Positions 5,974-39,610 are shown, counted from the first letter of the stretch. The stretch: 64,000 bases of DNA from Minisyncoccota bacterium (GCA_965204115.1 OZ241963.1:377548-441547); one strand, 5' to 3'. The notes: generated by a model not told the origin, from the letters alone. Numbers and translations are program-made.

Positions 5974-5978
5974 GAATT

Positions 5979-8853: not shown

Positions 8854-8883
8854 AGATGCGGCTGCCAAGTCGCACAATAAAAT

Positions 8884-8907: not shown

Positions 8908-8983
8908 GGCGCAAATTGAATTTTGCGCCGCGAGGCAGGCATATTTCCCGTGGCGACCTCTCTCTTGTGTTACAATCCTAATA

Positions 8984-14201: not shown

Positions 14202-14246
14202 CTGACATCATACAGATGTGACGCTTTTCTTTTTTCGCAGTGAGTT

Positions 14247-14972: not shown

Positions 14973-14983
14973 ATACTTCTGTA

Positions 14984-16225
14984 TTAGAGCAGTCTACCAC
15001 TTAATCGTCTTTTTGCAACATCACAATATTCTTTTGATATATCAATTCCCAAATATCTTCTGTCAAGTGTGTGGGCAACACTAGTGGTCGTCCCAACGCC
15101 ATTAAAAACATCTAATATTACATCGTTTTTAAAACTAAACAACTTTAGACATCGTATCACAAGGTTTTCAGGAAACATTGCAGGATGGCCGTATTCTTTC
15201 ATTTTTCTTTCTGGTGCGATAGACCACTTAGCGACAACCCATTTTTTAAACTCCTCTGCTGATATATCAATGTTTTCTGCATCTCCTGCATGCTTTAAGT
15301 CACCCTTGCAAAAAACCTCAATGAATTCCCATGTGTACTTGAGGTATGGGCTGCTCGGACTCTTCCAACTACCCCACGCTGTATACTTGCAATTATAGTT
15401 GTTTTTTTCCCACAATATCTCCCCTTTCCAAAGCATGCCGATATCCAACAGGTACTTGGAAATAAGATGATGTGTCGGGATGTAATCTGAAAACAATGGT
15501 TGCACATTCACAATCATTCGCCCTCCGTGTTTTAACACTCGCCTTGTTTCATTTAGTATAGCGAAAAGTTGCGTAAAGTACTCATCCCATCTTTTATCAT
15601 CTTCACCACTTTCATATTCAAGACCAAAGTTGTATGGTGGCGATGTTACCATCACATCAATGCAATTGTCAGGTAATTTTTTGAGCACCTCCAAACTGTC
15701 ACCGCATACTATCGCGTTTTCATATTCAGATGGCAAGATGTTTGTTTGTGTGTCGTTTTTATTATTTTTTTTCTTTACGCTGGCAGTTCTCTTCTCAGAT
15801 TTTTCTTTTCTGTTCTTTACCTTTCGCTCCTTATTAAAATTAATATATACTCTTTTCCCGCTTCGCAATCCATATGAACCAATGCTGTCGACCGCCTCAA
15901 CGAAATCGTCAATTAAATCTACCATTACCAGATCTTCACCTTCACTTGCTTTTATCTCTAATGCTCGTATTTTGAACTTTTCAAAGTTAAGATTATTAAC
16001 AAAAAGCTTTACTTCCCTTGCTCCCTTTGGCTCAAAGTAGATATGGTTATCAAATTCGTTGAAAAACGAGCGCATGACATCTTGGCTTTTCTTGTCAAAT
16101 TGATGCCTGGTTCTCAATGCAACCTCTTTATATTCCATATGTTTAGTATATCTCACAAAATTTATTGTCAATAATGATATCCCGAATTGATGAATGATTG
16201 CAAAATGCGCAGTAAATCTTATCAA
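14984..16225 (-). CDS. Beta-class DNA methyltransferase (SPPY motif, probably N4-cytosine or N6-adenine) with N-terminal extra domain
   Basis: Motif IV TSPPY precedes the C-terminal AdoMet motif I VILDVFNGVGTT (beta-class order). The N-terminal ~160 aa is unassigned; an internal start at MEYKEV (~16138) is possible. Confidence 0.8.
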   Translation of the reverse strand: MIRFTAHFAIIHQFGISLLTINFVRYTKHMEYKEVALRTRHQFDKKSQDVMRSFFNEFDNHIYFEPKGAREVKLFVNNLNFEKFKIRALEIKASEGEDLVMVDLIDDFVEAVDSIGSYGLRSGKRVYINFNKERKVKNRKEKSEKRTASVKKKNNKNDTQTNILPSEYENAIVCGDSLEVLKKLPDNCIDVMVTSPPYNFGLEYESGEDDKRWDEYFTQLFAILNETRRVLKHGGRMIVNVQPLFSDYIPTHHLISKYLLDIGMLWKGEILWEKNNYNCKYTAWGSWKSPSSPYLKYTWEFIEVFCKGDLKHAGDAENIDISAEEFKKWVVAKWSIAPERKMKEYGHPAMFPENLVIRCLKLFSFKNDVILDVFNGVGTTTSVAHTLDRRYLGIDISKEYCDVAKRRLSGRLL

Positions 16226-16283
16226 GCAGCATAGACAGCAAATTGATTATATTCCGATTCTTTGTTACAGTTACATTCTCACA

Positions 16284-18281: not shown

Positions 18282-18401
18282 ACTGTTTATTTTAACATTA
18301 AATATCCTAATTTTTAATTATCTTAGATGTATTTTGGGCGCCCGCTTGATTCGGATATGTCGTATGTCGTAAAAGAGTAATCTGCGAGTGAGTGATGTTG
18401 G

Positions 18402-28400: not shown

Positions 28401-31400
28401 GCCTTTCTCCCGCTGCACGCCGCTCCTCGCCTCGGTAATACTGATGGTCGGTGCCGTGGTGTCTATGCCCGTCACTTGTGTCGAACGCGCGAATGAGACA
28501 TTGCCCGCGACATCAATTGTCCGAAAGCAGACATAACTGCCATTTTGCGCTTCGTCGTCCAACACAATCGCGCGACCGGAGGTGTAGGGTTCGCTGTTCG
28601 CACTGGCTGCCAGGGTACTCTCGTTGCAGATTGAGCTTTTTGAAATGAGGTATCGCGCACTTTTGGGGTTCGCGTCTATTATTTTCGCACTAACGGTTTT
28701 TTCCTGTGCCGTGCCGCTTGATGCTTCGGTAACGGTAATCGTCGGTACGGTGGTGTCAACAATTATTGTTTTTCCGTATCCGTCGGTACCGCCGGCGTAG
28801 GTGGTGTCGGGAATGGTGTTACCCACTGCATCGGCAATTGCCTTGATGGTGAAGCTTAGATCACCGTTCTCCCCCGCGACAACAGTGTGTACCCATTGAA
28901 AAATTTTCGCATTATTCGCGCCGTCTTGCGACAAAATGATCGGTGTGCCGGTGACGGTCTCTCCGTCCAGATGTATCGCTATGCGACTAACCGCGTTATC
29001 CGAGAAACTGAGCTGGTCAGCGACGGTTGCCTGGATGGTTATCTGATCTCCCGCCTGTGCGGCAGTTGTAATCTCGTTGTTCGTGGTCGCGTGTACGCTT
29101 GAGAGTGTCGGCGGGGTGGTTTCCGCTTCAATAATCTTAATTTCCTGACTTTCGTCGGGTGCTGCGTTTCCCGCATTGTCCTTTAAATCGGTAACAGACC
29201 ATCTCAACACGCCGTTGTCTCCGGGCTGGATCGTGTACGGGTACCGTACATGACCGGCGGCGGCACCCTCAACAGTACCCGCTTCCGCATCTCGGTACGC
29301 TTCGTCGCCGAACTTTACTTTCCAGAGCCCCGCGCTGTGCGAAGAAAAGCCGCTGGCGCTCACTTCGTTGTTGTATCTCCGTTCAATGATGATCGTACTG
29401 CCTGCCGGAAGGTACTTAACGACGCCGTCAAATCTTTTTTTGGCGGCATCGCTGGTGCCGTTGATGTAATAATCGGTTGCACTTGCAACCGGTCTCGTGG
29501 TGTCTATGACCACCCCGATGTCAACGCGATGACCTCCGGCATTACCGGCATCATCACGCGCCTCCAGGTGAATCTTTTTCGGGGTTTTACTCTCATCGCC
29601 CGACTGGACGGTATAGGTGGCGATGTACCCCTGCTCGCCGGTTTTCCTCACGGTCATGCCGGTGCCGCCGGCAGCGCTCTCGCTGAATACTCGCATCACC
29701 GGAAGCGTGGTCAGGTGCTCGTCAGAAACGGTTGTAGTCGCGACGATGTCATCCCCCGCTTTTGCGTATTTATTGGTGCCGTAGACATTGCCCGAAGTGG
29801 TTACGGCGATATTCCCTATTACCGGATTTGTGCGGTCTATGTCGGCGATTTGCGCCGAACGCGCGAATGAGACATTGCCGAGTGTGTCACGCGCGCGGAA
29901 ACAGATGTAGGAACCGTTCTCATCTTCCCTGTTCAGCGTGATAACACTGCCGGAGGTGTAGTTCACACCGGCGGTGTCACTCCCGATAACACTTTCGTCG
30001 CAGTCCTCAGATGAAACTGTGAAACGGATACTGCCGGTGACGGCAGTTGCGTCAATTGTCGCGTGCATGGTTTTCTGTCGAGCAGCACCTCCTCCGGGTC
30101 CGACAGTGGTGATAGATGGTCCCGTCCGGTCTATGCCGTTTATCCGCGCAGATCGCGCGAACGAAATATTACCCGCTTTATCGCGTGCCCGAAAACAGAG
30201 ATATGTGCCGTTGTACCCTTCATTTTTCAGGACGACAGCTTCGCCTGAAGTCCATGCGCTCCCCACCCCATCACTACCGATGAGTGCTTCGTCACAAGTC
30301 GCGCTTGAGATAACATAACGGTTGCCGGTTGCGTCCGTGTTGGTGTCTGTTACGGTCGGGGTTATGCTCTTGCTCTGCGCTGCGCCTGACGCAGGGTCGG
30401 AGATGCTGAGTGCCGGGCTTGTGGTATCGATTTTCATCGCGTTCGTTGACACCTGCACGGTTGTGCTTTTGCCGTCGCTTGCCGCGAAACAGGCATATTT
30501 GCCGGAATGATTTTCTGTGTTGAAAGTTGCCGTGTACTCCTCGCCACGCTCCGGTGACGGAACGACCACAAAGGATGTTGGCGGTGTGGTGCCGTTATAT
30601 GTGGAATTATCGAGGCATTCTGCACTGGTTTCGACTTGCTGATAGCTCAAGTACAGCGTGTCATTTGGGTTAACATCACTAAGGCGCACGGTAAAGCCGT
30701 GCGATCTTGCCCAAGTGTTCGGGATATCATTAATTATTGTCAGTATCGGTGGGGTATTTTGTGGTGCGATAGCCGGAGAGACAGCACTGCGTATGTTTCC
30801 TGAGTAATCTTCCGCATAGACGCATATCTTGTCGGACAGGGCATTCGGCACGGTATACGAGTAGGACACCTCCTTTGGTAATCCCCCCGGTTCCACGACT
30901 TTCCCGCTGCTGACCTCGTTGTAGGTATCGCAGGCAGTTGAGTCCTCAGACCCGCTGATTTTTAGTGCGCCGTAGCGGTATATACCTGACTGGCTGTCTG
31001 TAATATTGATCGTATAGTTTTTTTCCACTTCTGGTGTGCCTGGAAAGGTTATAATAGGGGTGGTGTTATCCGGCTCATCTGCTTCAATGCTGTTGAGTGT
31101 CCAGGTTTCGTTATTCGCAGTGTTGCCCGCATTGTCGCTCGGTCCGGTGAGGGAAAATTTGAGTACGCCGTCGTCGCCAGGAGCGATGGTGTATGAGTAC
31201 CTCACCCTGCTGTTGCTGTCAAACACGGTGCCGTTGCTCATATTCCTCCACCGTCCGTTGCCGAATCTGATCCGCGCTACGCCGGCGTTCCCCGGAGACA
31301 GACCGCTCTCTCTTCCTTCGTTGGCGTACAACAGCATAATGGCAATCCGGGTGCCGGCGTTCACTTTACTGTGAACATTGAGATTTTTCTTCACCTCGTT

Positions 31401-31907
31401 AATGAAATAGTCAGTTGTGGTGCGTACCGGAGGTCTGGAATCTATTCGCAGTGTTCCGTGGAGCGGTATGTTCACGATGCCCCATGTGTCAAAAAACGAC
31501 ACGCATGCCTTGTTTGTTACTGTAAATAAACCGTGCTTAATGGGAAACTGTATGTTCCTTGTCTGTTCTCGATTACCCGGCACACTCAGCTGTACGCTAT
31601 TTGAAATTTCAGTCGCGTGGCCGTTGCAATTTGGATGTGAAAAATTGAGAAGACGCATCTCGGGGCGCACGGTCGCGGAGCTGAATGTCCGGTAGGTGAA
31701 GGTTACCCATGCGGCGATAGTATCGTTGTTACCCAGCCACCTGTTAATATTTGAAGTGTACGAAGCCCTGTTCGCCGCAAAAACATTCGGCATAAACACC
31801 GTTAAACCGATGAACGGCACAAAACATATGAGTAAAATATAAAGGGCTACTCGATACCTGCGAACGAAAAAAGACCTGTCCATAGGTGATGGGACTAAAA
31901 TTGACAA
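19455..31907 (-). CDS. Giant (4150 aa) membrane-anchored surface protein with ~35-40 tandem ~95-aa Ig-like repeats
   Basis: Single 12.45-kb ORF with N-terminal TM helix. Repeat unit ..GIDRTGPTI(T/S)..G.A.EKTVSA.I.D....RY.IS...CD..LIGSD..G..YTSG..I.LDDEAYNGQYVCFRARDAVGNVSFARSAQIT. Many repeats are near-identical at the DNA level. Confidence 0.85.
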   Translation of the reverse strand: MSILVPSPMDRSFFVRRYRVALYILLICFVPFIGLTVFMPNVFAANRASYTSNINRWLGNNDTIAAWVTFTYRTFSSATVRPEMRLLNFSHPNCNGHATEISNSVQLSVPGNREQTRNIQFPIKHGLFTVTNKACVSFFDTWGIVNIPLHGTLRIDSRPPVRTTTDYFINEVKKNLNVHSKVNAGTRIAIMLLYANEGRESGLSPGNAGVARIRFGNGRWRNMSNGTVFDSNSRVRYSYTIAPGDDGVLKFSLTGPSDNAGNTANNETWTLNSIEADEPDNTTPIITFPGTPEVEKNYTINITDSQSGIYRYGALKISGSEDSTACDTYNEVSSGKVVEPGGLPKEVSYSYTVPNALSDKICVYAEDYSGNIRSAVSPAIAPQNTPPILTIINDIPNTWARSHGFTVRLSDVNPNDTLYLSYQQVETSAECLDNSTYNGTTPPTSFVVVPSPERGEEYTATFNTENHSGKYACFAASDGKSTTVQVSTNAMKIDTTSPALSISDPASGAAQSKSITPTVTDTNTDATGNRYVISSATCDEALIGSDGVGSAWTSGEAVVLKNEGYNGTYLCFRARDKAGNISFARSARINGIDRTGPSITTVGPGGGAARQKTMHATIDATAVTGSIRFTVSSEDCDESVIGSDTAGVNYTSGSVITLNREDENGSYICFRARDTLGNVSFARSAQIADIDRTNPVIGNIAVTTSGNVYGTNKYAKAGDDIVATTTVSDEHLTTLPVMRVFSESAAGGTGMTVRKTGEQGYIATYTVQSGDESKTPKKIHLEARDDAGNAGGHRVDIGVVIDTTRPVASATDYYINGTSDAAKKRFDGVVKYLPAGSTIIIERRYNNEVSASGFSSHSAGLWKVKFGDEAYRDAEAGTVEGAAAGHVRYPYTIQPGDNGVLRWSVTDLKDNAGNAAPDESQEIKIIEAETTPPTLSSVHATTNNEITTAAQAGDQITIQATVADQLSFSDNAVSRIAIHLDGETVTGTPIILSQDGANNAKIFQWVHTVVAGENGDLSFTIKAIADAVGNTIPDTTYAGGTDGYGKTIIVDTTVPTITVTEASSGTAQEKTVSAKIIDANPKSARYLISKSSICNESTLAASANSEPYTSGRAIVLDDEAQNGSYVCFRTIDVAGNVSFARSTQVTGIDTTAPTISITEARSGVQREKGISAIVSADADTSGTRYTISADDCDADLIGNDDDGKAYTSGNNVALDSEHYNEKYVCFRARDSAGNIVFARSSMITGIDRISPAIGNIHITTTGITANGVKYAKAGDIITGTVLIADSNLIALPEARIFSETTTGGTAMTVNRIDNGNYTLTHTVRPDDEDSAVQKIFVRAQDDADNVSTGTGTLGVVIDTAAPTVSVTAIPAGGSREKTVSATLSDVGSGILTSGTRYSISDKTCDKDLIASDTSGNSYTSGAEITLNDEAYNEQYVCFRARDKAGNVVFARSAKISGIDRTGPTISIIHPDGVTNTKTISVTISADAIAAGTRRAIIANGSCDEEVIGSDTEGDRYVSGSGIAFNSETYNGKYLCVRTRDAVGNISFARSKVITGIDRTNPVISTVSVTTDSAYESTYYAGAGDTITATLSVSDTNFSGLPTVKIFSENSTLGEAMQVTDNNDGTYTATYTVRADDEDRSTQLLHMEARDAAGNLSGRGVDIGVIIDTVDPVISVGSLATGAAQEKTLKAGITDKNIVIAGARYVISESACDENLISDNSSGNAYISGTDIDLNSEQHNGKYVCFRARDIIGNISFARSSVITGIDRSAPTISVTEPAEGAAREKTVAATITDANPVSVGNRYAISSEDCDADLIGSDTEGTAYTSGEEVTLNNELQNGQYVCFRARDEAGNVRFARSSVIDNIDRTEPTFGGVTITSSGSDADGTTYAGTGDTITVNAVIVDEHLGTDPVMRIFSSGKTSGESVTVNKGADGTYTGTYTIAVGDENRSPQRIYLQALDDAGNTDAWTSDITVTIDTGGPNITITEAATGAARTKTVSAKITDSSATETKYRIADEDCDTELFIGFNAQTYQSGESITLNDEVYNGQHICFRASDSAGNISFARSAQTTGIDRTGPTITTLGLTAGVSPLKVVSASITGIAIAIGSRYAITTEDCDSDLIGSDTDGTSYTAGNTINLDKEEYNGQHVCFRARDAVGNVSFTRSAQIDGIDRIKPSISITEPTSGAAQLKSISAEIEDTHLIAAASRYDITTEDCDADIIGSDTEGTAYTSGESITLDDEAYNGQYVCFRARDTVNNIVFARSARITGIDRTGPTVSVTNPAGETAREKSVSAAIAEDAATAGSRYAISSEDCDADLIGSDTEGAAYTSGEEVTLNNELQNGQYVCFRARDAVGNVSFTRSAQITGIDRTAPTVRVVDPAFGDAREKLVSAVITGDAVAESTRYLITSSACDAALISSNTDGELYASGTNIALNDEAYNGQYVCFRVSDAAGNVSFARSAQIADIDRTGPTITLNDPSTGAAQEKFVSAIVTDGAITTDTRYIISDASCDESLIGNSATGRPYISGATIILNDEAYNRQYVCFRARDAVGNVSFARSEQITGIDRTGPTVTVTDPVVGAAREKTVSAAIAEDAAITGSRYTIAGSVCNATLISGDIAGEAYTSGKSITLDDEAYNGQYVCFRARDAVGNVSFTRSAQITGIDRTAPTVRVVDPAFGDAREKLVSAVITGDAVAESTRYLITSSACDATLISSDADGELYASDTDITLDDESYNGQHVCFRARDAAGNVSFVRSARITDIDRTGPTITLNDPSTGAAQEKFVSAIVTDGAITTDTRYIISDASCDESLIGNSATGRPYTSGATIALNDETYNGQYACFRASDLVGNVSFARSEQITGIDRTPPVITTLGPSAGLARLKVASASATGLPVDTGTQYILSDGNCDSRLISSDSDGVNYTAGENIVLDEEAHNGHYVCFRARDEVGNIAFARSEQISGIDRTAPVITITEPITGEAQTKTVSATITGNVAAAGSRYRIANGACDTDLIGSDSDGEPYVPGADITLDNETYNGQYVCFRSADTVGNVSFARSEQITGIDRVGPTITLNNPASGTSQEKTVSAVITDRSATVGSQYAISTGACDASLIGSSADGQPYTSGTDIALDDESYNGQYICFRAADTVGNVSFARSEQITDIDRTPPVITPVGPEPGTLQVKVAAVSITGLAADAGNRYVITGGVCDETVIASDTDGEAYTPSGGIVLDDEAYNRQYVCFRARDAIGNVSFARSAQITGIDRSGPVITPFGPESGAARLKVANARVTGFAEAVGNRYVITDEVCDETVIASDADGEAYTSGGSIILDDREQNGRYICYRARDAIGNVSFARSQQINGIDTSGPSINVAALSGGTARIKNISAEITDLSLVATGTRYIISGEPCDEALIASDIDGELYIPGTNVALNSESYNGQHVCFRTRDAIGNIVFARSAQITGIDRTPPVITPFGPEPGTARLKVVSASVTGLAVDAGDRYVITDGACDETVIASDADGDLYVSGRNIVLDNEAYNGRYICYRARDEAGNVSFVRSLQIDGIDTTAPTIAVADLTTEPALVKSVSASITGDADVAKSRYIISGDACDSDLIRTDTDGELYTSGESIVLDDEAYNGQHVCFRAADTVGNISFTRSDQIIGIDQSGPVITPFGPEPGTARLKVVSASVTGLAVDAGDRYVITDGACDETVIASDADGDLYVSGRNIVLDNEAYNGRYICYRARDEIGNVSFARSAQITGIDRTGPVITPFGPTSDPARLKVVSASVTGLAVDAGDRYVITSDVCDETLIDSDTDGDLYTSGGSIVLDDEAYNGQYVCFRARDAVGNVSFARSARIIDIDTTPPFVGEIITNTSGTVNNTGKYAKAGDTINIVFSESDLNFNNALPTVRIFTGTDAIGTALSVTGVPGSYNASYIVQPDDENKPQQVSITVSDIPGNVTTSTQQLDIIIDTTAPAPPSAITLATEYDSGLSNSDGITNRFTDLTFLISAEPNTVAVLSDSGGASGVIGSDGTPATITRTLPEESRLIALTATATDIAGNTSQESEQFTVAIDVNSPRMQLSRIEDRNITGSEDIVIFGAPSDPPAAVDSVDTVAVKAMTKTECDALTVFPTDGDEYTPFTFYELPTTALNGVCFIVRDRAGNIGATHSNDAE

Positions 31908-32018: not shown

Positions 32019-33179
32019 TTAGTCACGGATGGTGACTACTTGCCCGTTTTCAATTCGCTTTTTGACATGGGAGACGCCGGTTATGTCGCCGTTTTCGTCA
32101 AATTCGTGTTTTCCGGTGACACCGTCATATCCTTCCAGGTCGTCCAAGTACTTTCTGATCGCGTCGGTGTCTTCCGAGCCGACTGCCGCAACAGCTTCGG
32201 CAAGGATGTAGACATTGTCATATGCGGCACCGGTGTAGTACTCAATGCTCAGGTGACCGTATCGTCTTTCGTATTCCTCCAGGAATTCCACCGCTTTCGG
32301 GTCACTGTGATCCAGCTCAGGGTTGTCAAAGAAAGTGAGTCCCTCTATCGCATCACCGGCGGTTTGGATCACTTCCGCGCTTGAGAGCACATTGGTCCCG
32401 TACAGCGGAACAGTGATGCCTGCTTCTTTGATCTGCTTGATGATCGTGGCACCGGCGTCTCCTTGTGGGTTGATAAAGATCGCTTCGGGATTCGTCGACT
32501 TTATTCTCGCGATAATGTCACTGAAGTCAGTCGTGCCGGGAGCGAATCGCTCACTGTCAAGGATGGTTCCGCCGGCCTTCACGAAGTGTCCCTCAAGCAC
32601 CCGCTCCAAGGCGAGCGCATATTCGGTCTCTTCGGCAATCGTCGCGATCTTCTTATACCTTTTCAGAATTACATCAGCCAGAAAGAACCCGCCGGCCGCG
32701 TCAGACGGACTACTACGGAAGAAGTATCTCCCTGCACCGGTCAGGTTTGGGCTGGATGCTGAAGGTGAGAAGACAATTACTTTCTCTCCCTCGGTAACCG
32801 CGAGCATCGCCTGCGTTTCACTGCTGCAAACGCCGCCGATGATCATTTTCACTTTGTCAACATTCACCAGCTTGTATGCTACCTCCACGGCATCTTTAGC
32901 GGTACATTTACCGTCTTCATAGACCACCCGTAGCTCCCGACCGTTTATTCCGCCGGCGGCATTAATGTTATCTACTGCCATCTCGACACCATTGCGAATC
33001 GGGTTTCCGTATGATGCCGCACTTCCGGTCAATGCGCCGATGAACCCGATGGTAACCGGACTCGTGTCCTGAGGAGCGCGCGACCCCGAAGTTAATTCTG
33101 ATTGTGATATATATTGATACCCGAACCATAGTGCTATAACTGCAGCGATACCAATTACCACTTTTGTTGTTGTATTCAT
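32019..33179 (-). CDS. LivK-like (Peripla_BP_6) solute-binding protein, N-terminal TM anchor
   Basis: 386 aa; matches branched-chain amino acid SBP-family motifs; paralog of 33311..34507 and 61611..62743. Confidence 0.8.
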   Translation of the reverse strand: MNTTTKVVIGIAAVIALWFGYQYISQSELTSGSRAPQDTSPVTIGFIGALTGSAASYGNPIRNGVEMAVDNINAAGGINGRELRVVYEDGKCTAKDAVEVAYKLVNVDKVKMIIGGVCSSETQAMLAVTEGEKVIVFSPSASSPNLTGAGRYFFRSSPSDAAGGFFLADVILKRYKKIATIAEETEYALALERVLEGHFVKAGGTILDSERFAPGTTDFSDIIARIKSTNPEAIFINPQGDAGATIIKQIKEAGITVPLYGTNVLSSAEVIQTAGDAIEGLTFFDNPELDHSDPKAVEFLEEYERRYGHLSIEYYTGAAYDNVYILAEAVAAVGSEDTDAIRKYLDDLEGYDGVTGKHEFDENGDITGVSHVKKRIENGQVVTIRD

Positions 33180-33310: not shown

Positions 33311-34507
33311 TTACCGAATAGTTAGCACCTCGCCGCCTTCAATCTTTTTCTCCACATGCACAATGCCGGTTATGTCGCCATTTTCATCAAATGCATGCCT
33401 ACCGATTACCCCGTCAAAGTCCTTCATAGTGCGCAGGTAGTTTCTGATTGCATCGGTATTCTCTGAGCCGACCCGCTTAATGGCTTCAGTGAGGATGTGT
33501 ACAGCGTCATAGGCGGCACCAGTGTAAAATTCTACACCCGGATCGTCGTAGGTATCTTTGTACCGCTCCAAAAACGATACCGCCTTCGGGCTGTTTAGGG
33601 TTATGTCAGGGTTGTCAAAGAAGGTGAGTCCTTCTATTGCCTCACCGGCGGCTTGGATCACTTCCGCGCTTGAGAGCACATTCGTCCCGTACAGCGGAGC
33701 GGTGACGCCCGCTTCCCTGATCTGCCGTACAATAATTCCGCCGGCATCTCCCTGCGGATTAACAACAACCGCTTCGGGCGAGAGTGCTTGCATTTTCGCG
33801 ATTTTATCCGTGAAATCTTTTGTGCCGGGAGCGAATCGCTTGCTTATAAGGATTGTGCCGCCATTCTTGGCGAAAGTGTCCTCAAACACCTGTTCCAGTG
33901 CGAGCGTGTATTCGGTCTCCTCAGCAATTGTCGCTATCGTTGTGTATTTTTCCAGAATCAAATCTGCCAGAAACGAACCGCCTTTGGCATCAGACGGACT
34001 GCTGCGGAAGAAGTAGTCCCCCGCGCCGGTCAGGTTGGGGCTTGATGCCGACGGTGATAGGACAATCACCTTTTTTTCCTCAGTAACCGCGAGCATCGCC
34101 TGCGTTTCACTGCTGCAAACGCCGCCGATGATGATACGTACCCCGGCTGCATTCACCAGATTATCCGCCGCATGTACGCCGCCGTTGGCAGTACACTTAC
34201 TGTTTTCATAGAGTACCTTCAAAGACCTGCCGTTCACGCCGCCGGCAGCGTTAATATCATTGACCGCCATCTCAACAGCATTGCGAATCGGCACTCCCCA
34301 GATTGCCGCGTCTCCGGTCAGCGCGCCGGCAAATCCGATGGTGATTGGCAGAGCAGTGTCTGTGGCACCGGCAGGGTCAGCAGCATTTTTCGAATGCACG
34401 CGTTCGTTTGTGTCTCTGGTATTGTTTTGTGGTAGGTATTGGTAACCAGACCATAGTAACGCTGCAATTGCAGCAATACCAATTATCACCTTTACTACTG
34501 TGTTCAT
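33311..34507 (-). CDS. LivK-like (Peripla_BP_6) solute-binding protein, N-terminal TM anchor (tandem paralog)
   Basis: 398 aa, high similarity to the neighbouring SBP over its whole length. Confidence 0.8.
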   Translation of the reverse strand: MNTVVKVIIGIAAIAALLWSGYQYLPQNNTRDTNERVHSKNAADPAGATDTALPITIGFAGALTGDAAIWGVPIRNAVEMAVNDINAAGGVNGRSLKVLYENSKCTANGGVHAADNLVNAAGVRIIIGGVCSSETQAMLAVTEEKKVIVLSPSASSPNLTGAGDYFFRSSPSDAKGGSFLADLILEKYTTIATIAEETEYTLALEQVFEDTFAKNGGTILISKRFAPGTKDFTDKIAKMQALSPEAVVVNPQGDAGGIIVRQIREAGVTAPLYGTNVLSSAEVIQAAGEAIEGLTFFDNPDITLNSPKAVSFLERYKDTYDDPGVEFYTGAAYDAVHILTEAIKRVGSENTDAIRNYLRTMKDFDGVIGRHAFDENGDITGIVHVEKKIEGGEVLTIR

Positions 34508-34679
34508 AGGTCTTGTGGTATATGTGAGCGATTTTTAATACTCTATATATTGAGTATAGTAGCATGTGTCTTTCTGCGTACGGTAAGCAAATGGTGGGCT
34601 GTGGTGGATAATTCGTTGTCGGAGTACCCTATGTCTGACGCTCCGCTCTTAATTTTCCTCATTCCTCTTATGGGTCAGG

Positions 34680-36248
34680 ATGTTGAGTGGCGCCTATATA
34701 GAACAGATGGTACACTTACCATATATTTGTATGGTTACTTTTATCAATGGTGTGCAGCGGTGGCTGGATGGGATTGCGATGTATCGGGTGGTTACGCTCG
34801 GGCTTTGCTTTTTGGTTGGGGTGAGCTTGGCGCTGGGTGGTGCGGGGCTGCTGCCGTACAGTTTTTTGGAGCAAGGGGTTTCACTGGTGGTTGTGGTTAG
34901 TGTCGCAGTTGCCGGAAATGTGGTGTTCGCGCGTTTGTTTCGGATGTCTGCTAATCACGAGTCAGCGGTTATTACTGCGTTGATTATTTTCTTTCTCGTC
35001 ATTCCTGCCACCTCATTTTCCGGACAGTGGGTTGTTGCCGTCATCGCCCTTCTTGCGGTCGCTTCAAAATTTCTTCTCGCGGTGAGGCGGCAGCACATTG
35101 TTAACCCTGCCGCGTTTGGCGTGCTTGCACTGAGTGCGCCGAACATTGTTGAGGCGGCGTGGTGGGTCGGAAGTTCGTGGTTGTTTGTGCCGCTTGTTGT
35201 CGTAGGGTGTCTTGTGGTTATGAAGATACGGCGGTGGCCGCTTGTGGTGTGGTGTGTGGGTACCGCGTTTGTTGTGTATGTATTTGAGGCGTGGCGGCTC
35301 GGCACTGATGTTTTTGCCTCTGTGCCGGTCTTTTTTCTGTCGTGGCCGATACTGTTCCTTGCGTTTTTTATGCTTACTGAGCCATTCACCATGCCGCCGA
35401 CAAAAAAACTGCAGGCATATTACGGCGCGCTGGTCGGCGGGCTTTCCAGTGCCGCTTTTTTCGCGCCGTATGTCGCGATGTCCCCGGAGCTCGCACTGAT
35501 TATCGGCAATCTTGCTTTTTATTATTTCTCTTTGCGCAGGAAGTTACACCTGACGCTCACTGAAACAAAAGAGGTCGCGAAAAATACCCGGGAATTTGTT
35601 TTCACCAAGCCGGAAGGGGTGCAGTTTCACGCCGGGCAATATCTTGAGTGGATGCTGCCGCACAACAAGCCGGACAATCGCGGGACACGGCGGTATTTTA
35701 CCATCGCCTCCGCGCCGCATGAGGGAGTGCTGCGTATTGTGGTGCGGTTTTCTGAGGGCGGGAGTACATACAAGCAGGCGTTGCAAAAACTGCAGCCCGG
35801 TGATCGTATTGTTGCCAGTCAGCGGGCAGGAGATTTCTTGCTGCCGGATGATCTTGCGACAAAGCTTGCCTTTATTGCCGGCGGGATTGGTGTTACCCCG
35901 TTTTTGAGCCACCTTGGATATATTACTCAGCAGGGTATCCCGCGGGACATTGTTTTGTTCTACTGCAACAACACGAGTGCAGAAGTTGCCTATCGGGAAA
36001 CATTTGACGCGCTTGCCGCTTCCGGACAGTGCAGAGTGGTGCACTCGTTGGAGCGAGAGAAAAAGGCGGGCTGCGAACATGGACGCCTTACTGAGAATGT
36101 TATCAAAAAACATACTCCTGATTATCGAGAGCGGGTTTGGTATCTTTCCGGTCCGCCCGGCATGGTGTATGCCTATACCGCACTCCTGAGTGGCGCAGGT
36201 GTGCCGAAGCGGAATATTATTCGTGACTTCTTTCCCGGATTGGCGTAG
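34680..36248 (+). CDS. Membrane-embedded oxidoreductase: N-terminal polytopic domain fused to ferredoxin-NADP-reductase-like FAD/NAD(P)-binding domain
   Basis: ~300 aa with 8-10 TM helices, then RRYFTIAS (RxY[ST] FAD motif) and GGIGVTP (NAD(P) motif). Start uncertain (possibly MYRVV at ~34779). Confidence 0.7.
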   Translation: MLSGAYIEQMVHLPYICMVTFINGVQRWLDGIAMYRVVTLGLCFLVGVSLALGGAGLLPYSFLEQGVSLVVVVSVAVAGNVVFARLFRMSANHESAVITALIIFFLVIPATSFSGQWVVAVIALLAVASKFLLAVRRQHIVNPAAFGVLALSAPNIVEAAWWVGSSWLFVPLVVVGCLVVMKIRRWPLVVWCVGTAFVVYVFEAWRLGTDVFASVPVFFLSWPILFLAFFMLTEPFTMPPTKKLQAYYGALVGGLSSAAFFAPYVAMSPELALIIGNLAFYYFSLRRKLHLTLTETKEVAKNTREFVFTKPEGVQFHAGQYLEWMLPHNKPDNRGTRRYFTIASAPHEGVLRIVVRFSEGGSTYKQALQKLQPGDRIVASQRAGDFLLPDDLATKLAFIAGGIGVTPFLSHLGYITQQGIPRDIVLFYCNNTSAEVAYRETFDALAASGQCRVVHSLEREKKAGCEHGRLTENVIKKHTPDYRERVWYLSGPPGMVYAYTALLSGAGVPKRNIIRDFFPGLA

Positions 36249-36282
36249 GTTTTGCTGCTCTCTTGTGCTATAGTAACGGTAT

Positions 36283-36783
36283 ATGCTTCTCGTTTTCGTT
36301 ATTATTATCGGTGTAGTTGTGATTGCAGGTTTAGCATTTTTCCTTTTGCCGAACAGACAGCCACCGGAACCGCCTGCAACATCCGCAACAGCGACCGTTA
36401 CCGAAACTGACTTCCCTGCCGTTCCGCCGGCGGAGCGCCGTGAGAATGTAGTGCCGCTTGAACCTGCTGTGCCGACGCAAACGAATGTTTATCGTGATGG
36501 CACCTACACCGCCAACGCGGAATACTACACGCCAAAGCGGCGAAAGCATGTCATCTCTGTTACGCTTTCATTGCAGGATGATGTGATTGCCGGTGCTGAT
36601 GTGCAGTATGACGGCGCAGAAGCGAAGACGCCGAGTCACATACGGTTTGACGGCGCTTATGAGACGCTTGTCCTCGGTGTGGAAATGGATGATCTTGACC
36701 TATCACGAGTCGGCGGCGCTTCCCTTACCACTACCGCTTTTAATGAGGCATTGGGAGACATTACTTCAGATGCGTCTCTATGA
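36283..36783 (+). CDS. FMN_bind-domain protein (NqrC/RnfG-like), membrane-anchored, candidate flavinylation substrate
   Basis: N-terminal TM helix, YRDGTYTA start of the FMN_bind domain, C-terminal DLSRVGGASLTTTA resembling the D..[ST]GA[ST] flavinylation motif; overlaps apbE by 4 bp (ATGA). Confidence 0.55.
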   Translation: MLLVFVIIIGVVVIAGLAFFLLPNRQPPEPPATSATATVTETDFPAVPPAERRENVVPLEPAVPTQTNVYRDGTYTANAEYYTPKRRKHVISVTLSLQDDVIAGADVQYDGAEAKTPSHIRFDGAYETLVLGVEMDDLDLSRVGGASLTTTAFNEALGDITSDASL

Positions 36784-37664
36784 CGATACAGCTTAAAGAG
36801 ATTCCCGCACTCGGCACCCATTGGTGGTTTGACTTGTTTGGCGTGCCGCTGTCACGAGAAAAAGAAATTGCTGACCGGCTTATCAGCCGCCTGAATACTT
36901 TTGAGCAACAGTACTCCCGTTTTTTACATACTTCTTATATTGGTGTCCTGAATAAAACAGGTACGCTTAACAACCCGTCTGCTGAGCTTGTCTCTCTGCT
37001 GCAGTTCGGGCAAAAACTGTACCGAGACACCGGCGGGATGTTTAATTTTCTTTCCGCTCACACACAGGTCTCCCGTGGCTATGGTTCTCTGGACAGCGTG
37101 CGTGCAGGTGAAAGTGCGGCGATTGCTGACCCTACGGTCGACCTCGTTGTTGACCGGCAGTACATCACGCTGCATCGCGGCGCTGTTGATCTCGGCGGTT
37201 TCGGGAAGGGGTGGCTCATTGATGACTTGGCTGCTCTGCTGCGGACATCTCTCGGTGTGCGGCACTTTCTTATAAACGGTGGGGGTGATATATACGCGAG
37301 TACGCTCCCTGATGATTCACCGGTTCCTATTTTTGTTGAGCATCCGACCGAGCAAAAACAAATTATTGCGAAAGTGCCGCTTACTAACCAAGGGTTTGCC
37401 GGCTCCGGCACGTACAAGCGCCGCTGGCAGCGCGCCGGTACACCGCAGCACCATATCATAGCCGAACACACCGCTGACATAACAGCTCACACTGTTGCTG
37501 ATACTGCACTTACCGCTGATGTCTTCGCCACGCTCGCCTGCGCAGTTGCGCCTTCAGATGCCCCTCATTTGCTGCGTGATAATAACCTTGACTACCTCCT
37601 CATACAGCGCAATGCGGTTTCCTGTTCGGAATATTTCAAACAGTGCCTGCTCTCCCCCGCATAA
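36780..37664 (+). CDS. apbE: FAD:protein FMN transferase ApbE
   Basis: 294-aa ORF matching the ApbE family; translationally coupled to the FMN_bind gene upstream. Confidence 0.7.
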   Translation: MTIQLKEIPALGTHWWFDLFGVPLSREKEIADRLISRLNTFEQQYSRFLHTSYIGVLNKTGTLNNPSAELVSLLQFGQKLYRDTGGMFNFLSAHTQVSRGYGSLDSVRAGESAAIADPTVDLVVDRQYITLHRGAVDLGGFGKGWLIDDLAALLRTSLGVRHFLINGGGDIYASTLPDDSPVPIFVEHPTEQKQIIAKVPLTNQGFAGSGTYKRRWQRAGTPQHHIIAEHTADITAHTVADTALTADVFATLACAVAPSDAPHLLRDNNLDYLLIQRNAVSCSEYFKQCLLSPA

Positions 37665-37693: not shown

Positions 37694-39610
37694 CTACCAC
37701 ACAAACGCATCGTTGAGATAGCGCAGCAGGTCTTGTGTGTCGGTGAAGGCGTTTTCTGAGTTGAGTATGACTGTTATAACATGCCCCTTTTGCTTTGGTG
37801 CTTTGGAAATTATTGCGAGATTGCTTTTTGCTCTCGGTGTTGTGCCGGTTTTACCGCCCAGTATCTGTAGTGGGAGGTCTTGGCTGCTGAGCAGTTCGTT
37901 GGTTGTTGTTATCGGTACGGTTCGATTGTCATTTACGGTGGTGATGATGTGTTCATCTTTTTGCAGGATTGCAAAGATGTCTTTCTTGTTCTTGAATAGA
38001 TGCTGCAGGAGTGCCACGACGTCTGATACGGTTGCGTGGTTCAGGTCGCTGCTTCCCTGTTCCGGGTCAAGTCCGGTTGTGTTGAAGAAGTGTGTGTTGA
38101 GCATTTTTAGCTGGCGAGCTCTGTTGTTCATTTTTTGTATAAATTTTTCCCTGCCGATTGTTTCTGCGATTGCGATTGCGACTTCGTTATTTGATTCTAT
38201 CAAAATCGCATGCAGCGCGTCGTTGAGTGTTAGTGTTTCTCCTGCGGTAAATTTTCCTGACACACCTTTTCCGCTCAACGCGCTCCGGTTGATGGTGATG
38301 TGGCTGTTTCGCTGCAGGGTCTCCGTCGCGACTAGTGCGGTCATTAGTTTGGTGATACTCGCGATTGGTACTTCCCTTTCTTTATTTTTTTGTAGGAGTG
38401 CTTGGTTTGTACGGTTTGCGTTTATTGCTATTGCCACAGCGCTGTCCGCGGACAGTGTGGGCTCTTCACTGTTGCTGCGCTTTAGGATTGGGGACGGTGT
38501 TGTTCGTCGCGCTGCCGGCAGCACGAGTTCGGCATGCCACACATCGTTTTGCCAGCGCCAGTCAGCATCCATGCCGCCGAAGATCCACATCTTATCTTTA
38601 AATATAATTGAGGAGAAATCTTCCCGCCCCTTCCATTGCGGATCAGTCACGGTCTTGCTCCAGATGATTCCGTCTTCGGTATACCACACATTGTTCGGTC
38701 CGCCGTTTCTTGCATCGTTAAATCTCCCGATGAGCCACAGTTTTCCTTTGTATGCTTCCATCGCGTGACCCTGCCGGCTTTCCCATGGCGGGTTGTCGGT
38801 GAGCAGCCGCCAGTCCATACCGTTTTCGGTTACCCAGACATCACTAAAGATTGCGTTGTTCAAATCCATACCGCCGGTTAGGAATAGTTTTCCGTTGAAC
38901 GCCGCGGTTGCGTGATCCCACCGCGACTCCCACGGCGCTTCCTTCGCCTCTGTCCAGGTGACTCCGTCTTCGGAGTACCACACATCGTTTTTCGTTTCTC
39001 GGTCGTCATAGTTCACGCCGCCGATGAGCCAAATCTTATCCTGAAAAATTTCCACCAACTGCCCTTCCCGTGCCGGCCACGCTGCCTCCTTGACCACCTG
39101 TGTCCAGTGCACTCCGTCAACTGATGACCAGATATCGTTTGTGTATCCGGTTACCGGACTCCACCCGCCGAACATCCACAAGGTGTCTTTAAAGAGCACT
39201 ACTGACATTGATCGCCTCGGTGGCCATGCAGCTTCTGCTGTCGCCTGTTGCCACACCACACCGTCTTCGGAGTGCCATACATCGTTGAAGTGTGGTGCCT
39301 TCCAGTAGTCGATGGTTTTGTCTCCCCTGACTGTTTGGTTGCCGTTGATCCCCCCCATCATCCAGATTTTATTTTGGAATATAAATGCCTCGGCAGAATC
39401 TCGTGCCTCCCATGGTGCCGCTGCTGTTACCTTTGTCCAACGCATATCCTGCCGTCGTGGTGTTGCTGGCTTTTGGTCGGTGCCGTTTTGTGCGATCTTT
39501 TTTTCGTCATCTGTAGCGTCCGGTTCGGTGGATGGACCGACCATGTGGTACATACCGAAAACGAAGAGGGCGAAGACAGCCGCAAAGATGACGAATTCAA
39601 ACCATTTCAT
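37694..39610 (-). CDS. Fusion protein: N-terminal Asp-box (BNR-like) beta-propeller + C-terminal D-Ala-D-Ala carboxypeptidase (S11, DacA-like)
   Basis: Five S-x-D-G-x-x-W boxes (HSEDGVVW, SSVDGVHW, YSEDGVTW, VTENGMDW, YTEDGIIW). C-terminal SITK (SxxK), SNN (SxN) and KTG motifs of PBP5-type peptidases; N-terminal TM anchor. Confidence 0.75.
   Translation of the reverse strand: MKWFEFVIFAAVFALFVFGMYHMVGPSTEPDATDDEKKIAQNGTDQKPATPRRQDMRWTKVTAAAPWEARDSAEAFIFQNKIWMMGGINGNQTVRGDKTIDYWKAPHFNDVWHSEDGVVWQQATAEAAWPPRRSMSVVLFKDTLWMFGGWSPVTGYTNDIWSSVDGVHWTQVVKEAAWPAREGQLVEIFQDKIWLIGGVNYDDRETKNDVWYSEDGVTWTEAKEAPWESRWDHATAAFNGKLFLTGGMDLNNAIFSDVWVTENGMDWRLLTDNPPWESRQGHAMEAYKGKLWLIGRFNDARNGGPNNVWYTEDGIIWSKTVTDPQWKGREDFSSIIFKDKMWIFGGMDADWRWQNDVWHAELVLPAARRTTPSPILKRSNSEEPTLSADSAVAIAINANRTNQALLQKNKEREVPIASITKLMTALVATETLQRNSHITINRSALSGKGVSGKFTAGETLTLNDALHAILIESNNEVAIAIAETIGREKFIQKMNNRARQLKMLNTHFFNTTGLDPEQGSSDLNHATVSDVVALLQHLFKNKKDIFAILQKDEHIITTVNDNRTVPITTTNELLSSQDLPLQILGGKTGTTPRAKSNLAIISKAPKQKGHVITVILNSENAFTDTQDLLRYLNDAFVW

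Follow-up and report, generated by a model that had tools for sequence, protein, structure and literature searches.

A predicted NQR/RNF-like flavin operon of a Minisyncoccota bacterium with a divergent FMN_bind subunit and an ApbE lacking an export signal

CPR/Patescibacteria have tiny genomes and are thought to be fermentative; to our knowledge, they are devoid of respiratory chains, haem and quinones. What, then, could be the function of three adjacent genes in a Minisyncoccota bacterium, found in a 64-kb stretch of DNA (hereafter the window), that appear to encode a membrane reductase, an FMN_bind-type protein and an ApbE flavin transferase? The original prediction had described these genes as a module for extracytosolic flavin transfer. 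All three are co-oriented on the + strand at 34680-37664, and the earlier placement of the ORFs was confirmed, including the quoted motifs RRYFTIAS and GGIGVTP and the overlap of 4 bp between the second and the third gene. The layout of the locus, with the genes designated g1, g2 and g3, is as follows:

34508..34730, no strand: divergent intergenic region upstream of g1, in which no element was identified
34680-36248, + strand: longest ORF of g1, 522 aa
34731..36248, + strand: probable coding sequence of g1, 505 aa, with PF03116, PF00970 and PF00175 domains and an AF2 model
36283-36783, + strand: g2, 166 aa, divergent FMN_bind-fold protein, membrane-anchored, predicted ApbE substrate
36780-37664, + strand: g3, 294 aa, ApbE-family FAD:protein FMN transferase (Pfam PF02424)

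The true start of g1 is probably at 34731, because the homologues are mostly 504-522 aa long (505 aa for the nearest relatives) and in the nearest ones the first residue corresponds to Met18 of the ORF. The promoter is presumed to be located within 34508..34730; a promoter/terminator scan of the operon yielded nothing above shuffled expectation on the + strand. The ORFs of g2 and g3 share the sequence ATGA, an arrangement that suggests translational coupling.

Homologues of g1 are present in 80 species representatives, and an ApbE gene adjoins in nearly all of them. Two sub-types can be distinguished. In sub-type A, which includes the window and is present in 41 CPR species representatives, a g2-type gene adjoins g1, while in nearly all loci of sub-type B a canonical FMN_bind gene occupies this place. 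The homologues carry the names Kaiserbacteria (79% identity) and Paceibacterota. The g1-g2-ApbE trio is kept together in about 45 related loci, and therefore a chance juxtaposition is excluded. This conservation, together with the domain assignments described below, bears out the predicted three-gene flavin module. The presence of such a module had been called unexpected in an organism without respiratory chains. However, the "NQR/RNF-like" system, to which the module corresponds, was found primarily in Actinobacteria and CPR by Meheust 2021 (PMC8238504). Given this survey and the 41 CPR representatives of the sub-type, it is not unexpected in this organism.

Among the annotated recurrent neighbour clusters of the 80 related loci, no acceptor or partner gene was found to be conserved beside the trio. 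This bears on a further suggestion of the original prediction, namely, that the module supplies electrons to an extracytoplasmic thiol/copper redox cluster (thioredoxin, CcdA and multicopper oxidase) at 2.6-6.7 kb of the window. The cluster does exist, with genes for MauE, a three-domain multicopper oxidase, Spondin_N, thioredoxin and DsbD_TM, but it is located 28 kb away in separate transcription units, and thioredoxin, DsbD and multicopper oxidase are not among the recurrent neighbours. Moreover, CcdA/DsbD already has a cytoplasmic electron donor, which is thioredoxin. Hybrid DsbD/flavinylation systems occur in other bacteria, but those described by Meheust 2021 (PMC8238504) use DUF3570 and DUF4266, both of which are missing here. 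A connection between the two loci is thus highly improbable.

The predicted features of g1 are the following:

34731..35540, + strand: membrane domain, aa 1-270 (505-aa numbering), about 10 transmembrane helices with the RnfD/NqrB fold
35136..35174, + strand: short outward-facing loop, aa 136-148, in place of the long RnfD/NqrB loop with the flavinylated Thr
35541..36245, + strand: cytoplasmic FNR-type domain, aa 271-505
35688-35711, + strand: RRYFTIAS, FAD-binding motif of the FNR-type domain
35880-35900, + strand: GGIGVTP, NAD(P)H-binding motif of the FNR-type domain

The N-terminal membrane domain, for which the original prediction had called for an assignment, matched Pfam NQR2_RnfD_RnfE (PF03116) with an E value of 7e-7, above the gathering score, and the C-terminal part matched FAD_binding_6 (PF00970, 3e-8) and NAD_binding_1 (PF00175, 8e-16). 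The AF2 model of g1 has a pLDDT of 90.6 and a pTM of 0.86. The motifs QHIxNPAA and FFMLTEPFT are conserved in the membrane domain, and the C-terminus, DFFPGL[AV], is invariant. In an alignment of 10 family members, the segment around GISQAT187 of E. coli RsxD is deleted in g1 as well as in the nine homologues. Because the loop with the flavinylated Thr is deleted, g1 is expected to be without a flavinylation site of its own; an ApbE site elsewhere in g1 was also considered and rejected, as no conserved motif of the [STG]GA[ST] type was found. This agrees with the absence of the flavinylated Thr of NqrB/RnfD from the NQR/RNF-like membrane subunit, as stated by Huang 2024 (PMC11334425).

The NQR/RNF-like system has been defined by Meheust 2021 (eLife, PMC8238504) and modelled by Huang 2024 (mSystems, PMC11334425), and it is known by prediction, since both papers treat it computationally; their interpretation of this architecture is like the one proposed below. 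The definition asks for a single protein with an N-terminal PF03116 and a C-terminal NqrF-type PF00175 domain, which g1 is, and for ApbE or FMN_bind within five genes; here, ApbE is encoded two genes downstream, with g2 in between. The architecture thus matches that of the recently recognised flavinylation modules with which the locus had been compared.

As g1 matches RnfD/NqrB as well as NqrF families, the trio might instead be only one part of a full NQR or RNF complex, with the remaining subunits encoded nearby. However, no NqrA/C/D/E, no RnfA/B/C/E and no Fe-S subunit was detected among the scanned ORFs of at least 150 aa in the window, such subunits are not among the annotated recurrent neighbour clusters of the 80 related loci, and a canonical six-subunit Na+-NQR or RNF operon was found in neither set. 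In addition, all NCBIfam equivalog scores of g1 were far under the cut-offs, and g1 belongs to a separate lineage, marked by its NqrB-NqrF-type fusion and by the missing Thr loop. The idea of a fragment can practically be discarded, and a larger NQR/RNF complex encoded nearby, which the original prediction had named as speaking against it, did not turn up among the scanned ORFs.

The second gene, g2, has the following predicted features:

36286..36345, + strand: N-terminal transmembrane helix (signal anchor), aa 2-21, from the AF2 helix and hydropathy
36346-36489, + strand: disordered tether rich in Pro, Thr and Glu, aa 22-69, AF2 pLDDT 58-71
36490..36780, + strand: FMN_bind-fold domain, aa 70-166, three strands followed by helices
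36703..36732, + strand: flavinylation-type motif SRVGGASLTT, with the predicted FMN acceptor Ser147 (codon 36721-36723)

Scans with g2 gave no Pfam or NCBIfam match at all, even at E<=10, and therefore the FMN_bind label needed other lines of evidence. Of 42 g2 relatives, 12 matched Pfam FMN_bind (PF04205) weakly (best E 0.0013). When the g2 family was compared by hhalign with 17 FMN_bind proteins that adjoin g1 homologues in Ktedonobacteria, all of which pass Pfam PF04205, a probability of 97.2% and an E value of 4e-11 over 99 columns were obtained. The same family gave no hhalign signal with the single sequence of E. coli RsxG, and its profile retrieved no FMN_bind protein from the PDB sequences (best match 4les, E 0.012, in the linker region). 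The modelled domain has the FMN_bind fold, and its top structural match is domain 2 of a multi-FMN protein. Thus, the label failed in profile searches with Pfam and NCBIfam, the outcome that the original prediction had itself named as speaking against it, but it is upheld by the family alignment and the fold.

The C-terminal motif of g2 is, judged from its sequence, a flavinylation site, as had been surmised from its resemblance to known sites, with Ser147 as the predicted acceptor. In the alignment, Ser147 falls on the Thr that is flavinylated in the canonical V-[ST]-G-A-T motif, and R142, G144, G145, A146, S147, L148 and T149 are invariant in the 42 sequences. The motif S-R-V-G-G-A-S deviates from the canonical D-x-x-[ST]-G-A-[ST] at two positions (S for D and G for [ST]), but neither the G-A-[ST] core nor the position of the acceptor is changed. 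ApbE has been found to take Ser and a minimal motif of seven residues, and a D-to-A exchange is reported to be tolerated (PMC12052999). Searches of the window with the strict motif and with that of sub-type A revealed no further flavinylation substrate. Altogether, the S-R-V-G-G-A-S family comprises about 2,700 representative clusters, including members with up to seven repeats.

The third gene, g3, matches Pfam ApbE (PF02424) with an E value of 7e-35 over profile positions 12-264 of 266, and an alignment to E. coli ApbE revealed that the catalytic-type motifs GGGD, SG(T/S), H and AD are retained. However, g3 has neither a signal peptide nor a lipobox, a point that the original prediction had not raised. 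Its first strand (ALGTHWW) begins at residue 10, whereas E. coli ApbE, used as a control, has a lipoprotein signal of 20 aa. Indeed, a signal peptide or transmembrane segment is absent from g3 and from all 71 full-length ApbEs that adjoin g1 homologues. Three explanations were considered and rejected. An upstream start that would provide an export signal is ruled out by an in-frame stop 13 codons upstream of the g3 start. A fusion of ApbE with g2 by readthrough or frameshifting is also ruled out, because the g2-apbE junction varies among loci (overlaps of 4 bp or 1 bp, direct abutment, and gaps from 1 to about 80 nt) and there is thus no consistent relation of the reading frames. Lastly, an internal or C-terminal membrane anchor of ApbE is excluded, as the maximum 19-residue hydropathy is 1.96 and lies in a helix of the conserved core. 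The lack of a signal conflicts with the usual picture, in which an exported substrate is flavinylated extracytosolically. Literature searches yielded nothing on ApbE in Patescibacteria, nor on the combination of ApbE, FMN_bind, cytoplasmic and signal peptide.

Where, then, does the FMN_bind domain of g2 reside? The absence of an export signal from ApbE at every locus examined would be readily explained if the whole flavin chain faced the cytoplasm. In that case, there would be no extracytosolic conduit. The cytoplasmic ApbE would flavinylate a g2 inserted with its N-terminus out and its C-terminus in, and g2 would act as an electron relay between the FNR and the membrane domain of g1 or towards a cytoplasmic or membrane acceptor. 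ApbEs that act in the cytoplasm on cytoplasmic substrates do exist, one of them being that for the fumarate reductase of Klebsiella (PMC12052999), and most g2 proteins of sub-type A have no charged residues ahead of the helix, the hydropathy of which has a family median of 2.72 in a 19-aa window. However, g2 relatives with longer N-termini do have K or R ahead of the helix, the partners in sub-type B begin with MKK or MKR followed by the helix, which is a classic N-in signal anchor, and the tethers are acidic and rich in Pro and Thr. A relative with seven repeats has an N-terminus resembling a cleavable signal peptide, followed by Thr/Pro linkers, and NqrC and RnfG, which are homologous, are located in the periplasm. 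According to the topology read from the model, the FMN loop that g1 lacks would be on the outer face, and the multimer model of Huang 2024 (PMC11334425) docks the subunit, described as extracytosolic, in an intimate complex at this flavin site of the membrane domain, where its covalent FMN is placed. Therefore, a location of the FMN_bind domain of g2 outside the membrane is inferred, in line with the original prediction, and an arrangement of the entire chain on the cytoplasmic side seems quite unlikely.

Taken together, the results lead us to propose, with a probability of roughly 0.7, that the two subunits g1 and g2 form a self-contained transmembrane electron conduit of the NQR/RNF-like type and that the operon also supplies the enzyme for its maturation. 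We infer an outward direction of electron flow, an intermediate flavin, a flavinylated g2 and an external acceptor, as follows. The FNR-type FAD domain of g1 would oxidise NAD(P)H on the cytoplasmic side, and the electrons would cross the 10-helix NqrB/RnfD-like domain, probably via a non-covalent flavin, which is an assumed cofactor, along the riboflavin/FMN path of NqrB in reverse. They would then arrive at an FMN attached covalently to Ser147 of g2, the FMN_bind domain of which would be held outside the membrane by the N-terminal helix and a flexible linker of about 50 residues. This domain may dock where NqrB and RnfD have their own covalent FMN, on the loop that g1 has lost. The electrons may then pass to an external acceptor such as Fe(III) or Cu(II), oxygen, a soluble flavin or quinone, or a partner protein. 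The role of g3 would be the transfer of FMN from FAD to Ser147 in a phosphoester link. As ApbE is signal-less, this flavinylation would most likely take place in the cytoplasm, prior to the export of g2. A more general version of this idea, which we offer tentatively and consider rather less likely than the conduit itself, is that the dedicated cytoplasmic ApbEs of NQR/RNF-like modules flavinylate the C-terminal motif of the FMN_bind protein in its unfolded state, or each repeat of the multi-domain 'flavin wires', before Sec translocation.

The module could also be, exclusively or in addition, a redox-driven ion pump or an oxidoreductase coupled to the ion-motive force, in which the flow from NAD(P)H to the acceptor moves Na+ or H+ and the NqrB/RnfD-like domain of g1 acts together with the F1Fo ATP synthase. 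NqrB and RnfD are part of ion-translocating complexes (PMC12174285), and in 24 of the 45 sub-type A loci the trio directly adjoins the F1Fo ATP synthase operon, in two arrangements, either downstream of atpD or upstream via PGI-atpB. However, no atp genes lie near the trio in the window and in its nearest relatives (L001, L005 and L006), the adjacency may reflect synteny inherited from as few as two events, and genes for UDG, Fpg and MGMT-like proteins recur equally as neighbours. Furthermore, NqrD/E and RnfA/E, which harbor the intramembrane Fe-S centre that is central to current coupling models, are absent from the scanned ORFs, and the driving force would depend on the nature of the acceptor. 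Therefore, we regard ion pumping as unlikely, if somewhat less so than a purely cytoplasmic chain.

The proposed conduit would have several consequences. An all-flavin route encoded by three genes would enable CPR to re-oxidise NAD(P)H and to perform redox chemistry on their own surface or that of the host, for example, metal reduction for uptake, and surface redox could handle oxygen or reactive oxygen species. If g2 is flavinylated before export, neither an FAD exporter nor a secreted transferase would be needed, and the three genes would form a fully self-contained conduit from NAD(P)H to the outside that suits minimal CPR cells. Since none of the associated ApbEs has an export signal, the site at which flavinylation is assumed to occur is called into question. 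Counts of the system in CPR are probably too low, because Pfam misses g2 and ApbE lacks the signal peptide used as a survey filter; a Pfam-based pipeline would probably skip this cluster. If cytoplasmic flavinylation is confirmed, the S-R-V-G-G-A-S family would imply that extracytosolic electron transfer through flavins is widespread among CPR and that the published under-representation is in part a detection artefact. For heterologous reconstitution, a minimal gene set and a predicted acceptor residue, Ser147, are now at hand. If nothing beyond membership holds, the locus would be an ordinary example of an already predicted system.

Several known systems share parts of this architecture. NOX, FRE, the bacterial SpNOX and MsrQ-like-NAD fusions also combine a cytoplasmic FNR-type NAD(P)H dehydrogenase with a membrane domain that carries electrons outward. 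However, their membrane part is a six-helix di-haem ferric-reductase domain, whereas g1 has the RnfD/NqrB fold and the carriers are presumed to be flavins instead of haems, so that the analogy is functional only. In the EET system of Listeria (Ndh2, EetA/B, PplA and FmnB), FMN_bind domains flavinylated by ApbE are likewise tethered to the outside of a cell with a single membrane (monoderm-type), but this system works with a quinone pool, an FAD exporter and an ApbE that is a lipoprotein (FmnB; PMC9973259). The module described here implies no quinone step, its cluster does not encode an exporter, and its ApbE is signal-less. Multi-repeat versions, as in the multi-flavinylated FMN_bind proteins (8p2a, 8p2b), exist here as well. 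The cytoplasmic ApbE of Klebsiella pneumoniae (PMC12052999) shares the absence of a signal peptide, but its substrate is a soluble cytoplasmic fumarate reductase, and not a protein with a signal anchor.

Like Na+-NQR (NqrB, NqrC, NqrF) and RNF (RnfD, RnfG), the module is predicted to carry FMN that ApbE attaches covalently in a phosphoester bond. It has counterparts of only two of the six subunits, however; NqrA and RnfB/C are missing, as is the intramembrane 2Fe-2S pair of NqrD/E and RnfA/E. The FNR module of g1 has no ferredoxin-type 2Fe-2S domain, g1 has no covalent FMN site, and the electron flow is presumed to be one-way outward instead of semicircular. The closest correspondence is to the NQR/RNF-like system, with which the locus shares the fusion of an NqrB/RnfD-like membrane domain without the flavinylated Thr to an NqrF-type NAD-binding domain, the membrane-anchored NqrC/RnfG-like FMN subunit, the adjacent ApbE and the occurrence in CPR. 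The modelled example from Ktedonobacter belongs to the other sub-type, with the gene order FMN_bind-apbE-g1, the motif D-x-V-[ST]-G-A-T and an ApbE of about 247 aa. In contrast, the sub-type of the window has an FMN_bind protein invisible to Pfam with the invariant S-R-V-G-G-A-S and a Ser acceptor, an ApbE of about 290 aa with an extra segment of about 50 aa, and either the order g1-g2-apbE or g1 divergent from g2-apbE; in some loci, g2 is duplicated or multi-domain. An ApbE without a signal peptide is not mentioned in the available text of Meheust 2021 and Huang 2024. Thus, the system itself was already predicted, and new here are the CPR-specific S-R-V-G-G-A-S sub-type, the signal-less ApbEs and the adjacency to the ATP synthase.

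The three genes that had been proposed to form a flavin-transfer operon are co-oriented; the first gene (g1) is separated from the second (g2) by 34 nt, and g2 and the third gene (g3) share 4 bp (ATGA). All three ORFs and the motifs quoted for them were found where they had been noted. Because both flanking genes run on the opposite strand, the trio stands out as a discrete unit:

34680-36248, plus strand: g1, longest ORF, 522 aa, NqrB/RnfD-like membrane domain fused to an FNR-type module
35688-35711, plus strand: RRYFTIAS motif in g1
35880-35900, plus strand: GGIGVTP motif in g1
36283-36783, plus strand: g2, ORF of 166 aa, divergent FMN_bind-type protein
36703-36732, plus strand: SRVGGASLTT motif in g2
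36780-37664, plus strand: g3, ORF of 294 aa, ApbE flavin transferase
ending at 34507, opposite strand: solute-binding protein, upstream flank of g1
ending at 37694, opposite strand: Kelch/D-Ala-D-Ala carboxypeptidase fusion, downstream flank of g3

Taken together, the Pfam domains of g1, the remote homology of g2 and the PF02424 domain of g3 support a three-gene flavin-transfer module. Immediately upstream and divergent from it lie two tandem paralogous Peripla_BP_6 solute-binding proteins (32019-33179 and 33311-34507, minus strand), each with an N-terminal anchor, and a third copy is located at 61658-62743 (plus strand), near an ABC/FtsX/HlyD export set at 57.7-61.6 kb. The downstream neighbor (37694-39610, minus strand, 638 aa) joins a Kelch beta-propeller to a Peptidase_S11 D-Ala-D-Ala carboxypeptidase in one protein. 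In the related locus L001 (7977-10897), two neighboring genes encode the Kelch part and the carboxypeptidase part separately, the latter also with PG_binding_1/VanY, a difference that represents a gene fusion or fission event.

The true start of g1 is probably at 34731, because its closest homologues are 505 aa long and begin at the equivalent of Met18 of the ORF; most g1 homologues have 504-522 aa. The longest ORF, which starts at 34680, opens 17 codons 5' of that point, and the related protein P0058 has a similar extension. The start is ambiguous; a clear Shine-Dalgarno sequence was seen neither at 34680 nor at 34731. The original prediction had asked for a domain assignment of the N-terminal membrane domain, and this domain turned out to be NqrB/RnfD-like, given the match to NQR2_RnfD_RnfE (PF03116; 29.4 bits at a cut-off of 27.7, ORF residues 172-277) and the alignment with E. 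coli RsxD. Further Pfam matches were to FAD_binding_6 and NAD_binding_1, and NCBIfam yielded only sub-threshold likeness to flavohaemoprotein, NqrF, RnfD/RsxD and NqrB. About 10 membrane helices are predicted by the structural model, and basic clusters follow alternate helices (R70, RR117-118, KIRR164-167, KK223-224 and RRK266-268, counted from Met18 in the 505-aa numbering), from which we infer an N-in/C-in topology that would place the FNR domain in the cytoplasm. In the RsxD alignment, family motifs are retained (QHIxNPAA corresponding to RsxD NPFNPA, and FFMLTEPFT to FFILTDPVT), but the long loop with the flavinylated Thr (GISQAT187) is missing in g1 and in 9 of 9 homologues.

To place the operon among its relatives, one genome per GTDB species was scanned, which yielded 180 stretches with g1 relatives, and the best 80 of these 180 were fetched. 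Two architectures are represented among the best 80. Sub-type A comprises 41 of them and, in addition, the window and three metagenomic loci; only CPR taxa occur in it (Kaiserbacteria, Paceibacteria, Parcubacteria, Nomurabacteria and others). Here, a divergent g2 with the SRVGGAS motif is followed by an ApbE of about 290 aa, either colinear after g1 (the window, L001, L005, L006 and L086) or divergent from it, and some loci contain two g2 paralogues. Five Paceibacteria loci (L033-L035, L038 and L039) carry such paralogues, of about 145 aa and 200 aa, in tandem between g1 and apbE. Sub-type B, the remaining 39 loci, occurs mainly in Ktedonobacteria and other Chloroflexota and in some CPR; its order is FMN_bind, ApbE (about 247 aa), g1, with genes that overlap or nearly abut, and its FMN_bind protein has the canonical motif and an N-terminus of MKK or MKR followed by a helix. 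The closest named relative of the window g1 is from a Kaiserbacteria MAG (79% identity). The other genes of the window, which include class I LysRS, glycolytic enzymes and the giant surface protein described below, with no respiratory genes among them, agree with a CPR genome.

Direct profile searches failed for g2: no Pfam or NCBIfam match was obtained even at E<=10, an outcome that the original prediction had named as counting against its FMN_bind call, and the precomputed Pfam fields were empty for 53 of 53 database relatives. Nevertheless, the call is rescued by remote homology and structure, and four lines of evidence mark g2 as a divergent FMN_bind domain. First, weak Pfam FMN_bind matches appeared in 12 of 42 aligned g2 relatives (best E 0.0013), and no other family came close to this number. 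Second, the AF2 model (pLDDT 86.5 overall, above 90 at residues 70-166) begins with a helix (2-21), continues through a disordered linker (22-69) and ends in a domain of three strands plus helices; by itself the fold would not decide the assignment, because nearly equal scores were obtained for IscU/SufU-type domains and for the C-terminal domains of lipoate ligases. Third, the canonical FMN_bind gene upstream of apbE-g1 in Ktedonobacteria and other Chloroflexota encodes proteins of which 17 of 17 pass PF04205, and a profile comparison of the g2 family with these 17 by hhalign gave 97.2% probability (E 4e-11, 99 columns). This alignment pairs S-R-V-G-G-A-S-L-T-T-x-A-F with D-x-V-S-G-A-T-x-T-S-x-A-F, so that Ser147, the predicted FMN acceptor of g2, falls on the flavinylated Thr. 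Fourth, all 42 g2-family sequences share R142, G144, G145, A146, S147, L148 and T149 without exception. Relative to the canonical ApbE motif D-x-x-[ST]-G-A-[ST], g2 has S in place of the D and G at the first [ST] position; according to a review of ApbE, D-to-A effects are minor, and Ser is accepted, albeit less favoured, as the acceptor (PMC12052999).

For the g2 family, the sub-type A profile retrieved 3,228 representatives (50% identity clusters among 1.84 billion proteins) with a cut-off of E<=1e-3, of which 2,697 remained at E<=1e-10. In some g2-type proteins (P0182, P0183 and P0184) a unit with [IV]GGASLTT is repeated in tandem, two, three or seven times; these proteins look like "flavin wires", and their genes neighbor those of signal-less ApbEs. 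P0182 (L087, 3250-6267) has seven repeats with Thr/Pro-rich linkers and a signal-peptide-like N-terminus, and its gene lies directly upstream of a signal-less ApbE; the three-repeat P0183 (L086, 572-1894) is encoded between the g1 gene and a further gene, which is followed by a signal-less ApbE. The L087 gene translated under table 11 differs from the stored P0182 protein, a mismatch that could reflect another genetic code or a discrepancy between the sequences.

The third gene encodes a full-length ApbE domain (PF02424, E 7e-35), in which alignment to E. coli ApbE/Ftp recovers the GGGD, SG, H and AD motifs. In contrast to the E. coli protein, which has a 20-residue lipoprotein signal with the lipobox Cys at its end (12-residue hydropathy maximum 2.68), g3 has no signal peptide: its first fold strand (ALGTHWW) begins already at residue 10, and its reading frame is closed by a stop 13 codons before the ATG. 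All ApbEs adjoining g1 relatives of both sub-types likewise have at most about 10 residues ahead of this strand; a few ORF calls are longer, but their 5' extensions lie over the preceding gene and lack hydrophobic character. A transmembrane-like segment is present in none of 71 full-length ApbEs (19-residue hydropathy maximum 1.96, median 1.17; the g2 anchors reach a median of 2.72). The ApbE that accompanies the whole kind appears to be cytoplasmic. In an alignment of ApbE proteins, the sub-type B enzyme lacks a stretch of about 50 residues that the E. coli and sub-type A enzymes have after their first helical region and ahead of the G-x-G-K-G motif.

This apparently cytoplasmic ApbE is the most interesting point for the whole kind, and no discussion of a signal-less ApbE versus an exported substrate was found in the available portions of the Meheust 2021 and Huang 2024 texts. 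The substrates look exported, because the sub-type B FMN_bind N-termini are K/R-rich ahead of the helix, the g2 tethers are acidic or Pro/Thr-rich, P0182 has a signal-like N-terminus, NqrC and RnfG are periplasmic, and the FMN loop absent from g1 would be on the outer face by the topology reading. Of three possibilities, we tentatively favour flavinylation of the still-unfolded g2 chain in the cytoplasm, followed by Sec export, over a g2 domain located in the cytoplasm and over export of ApbE by a non-classical route. SecYEG tolerates side-chain adducts bigger than FMN. Flavinylation before Sec export is plausible because seven residues are enough for recognition by ApbE (PMC12052999). A g2-ApbE fusion generated by readthrough or frameshifting is unlikely, because the g2-apbE junction differs among loci.

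A conserved gene for an acceptor or partner beside the trio was not found in the related loci. The recurrent sub-type A neighbors are DNA-repair genes (UDG, Fpg, MGMT-like), phosphoglucose isomerase (PGI) and the F1Fo ATP synthase operon. The atp operon directly adjoins the trio in 24 of 45 sub-type A loci, with the trio either downstream of atpD (L008, L010-L014, L016-L018, L025, L032, L033 and L040) or upstream of PGI-atpB (L021, L026, L031, L036, L037 and L041-L045). As NqrB and RnfD belong to ion pumps, this adjacency could hint at a functional link to membrane energisation, but it could equally well be inherited synteny, and it is absent in the window and its closest relatives. Pairing with the thioredoxin/CcdA/multicopper-oxidase cluster had also been proposed. 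That cluster (2.7-6.7 kb) is real, and with a further gene it makes up a set for redox chemistry outside the cytoplasm (2679-8942), but it lies 28 kb from the operon, no such kind is present among the annotated recurrent neighbor clusters of the related loci, and no evidence for a link to the flavin module was found:

2679-3167, minus strand: MauE-like
3172-4599, minus strand: multicopper oxidase, three-domain
4760-5488: Spondin_N
5500-5973: thioredoxin
5979-6725: DsbD_TM/CcdA
8340-8942: AhpC/TSA, further along the cluster

Two other loci of the window deserve mention. A giant ORF of 4,150 aa (19455-31907, minus strand) with scattered bacterial Ig-like domains (Big_3_3, Big_6, Big_13) probably encodes a surface or adhesion protein of a kind common in CPR episymbionts. 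The region 14000-18300, probably a restriction-modification or defence island that was acquired, has a GC content of 0.33-0.39 versus about 0.50 elsewhere and encodes an N6/N4 DNA methylase (14984-16225), a 665-aa HATPase_c_3 protein (16284-18281) and a 241-aa protein without a family.

No further NQR/RNF subunit was found among the scanned window ORFs of 150 aa or more, and no further flavinylation motif in the window, in agreement with the view that the operon is not part of a larger NQR/RNF complex encoded nearby. Meheust 2021 defines an "NQR/RNF-like system" as a flavinylation-associated cluster with a PF03116 and PF00175 fusion (PMC8238504), and Huang 2024 describes an AlphaFold-Multimer model of the Ktedonobacter racemifer complex, in which the Thr of NqrB/RnfD is missing from the membrane domain and the flavinylation site of the partner coincides with what appears to be a non-covalent flavin site in the membrane subunit (PMC11334425). 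Judged from its sequence, the window operon is a member of this computationally defined kind, for which no experimental paper was found in the literature, and a CPR-specific variant of it with a divergent flavinylation motif. Because the operon fits the published description, such a module is not "unexpected" in a CPR organism, contrary to what had been supposed. Extracytosolic flavinylation was reported to be "strikingly underrepresented" in CPR by a survey that required ApbE, FMN_bind, DUF3570 or DUF2271 with a predicted signal peptide (PMC8238504). Sub-type A would tend to escape this survey, because its FMN_bind protein is not recognised by Pfam and its ApbE is signal-less. The reported underrepresentation may partly be an artefact of the survey filters.
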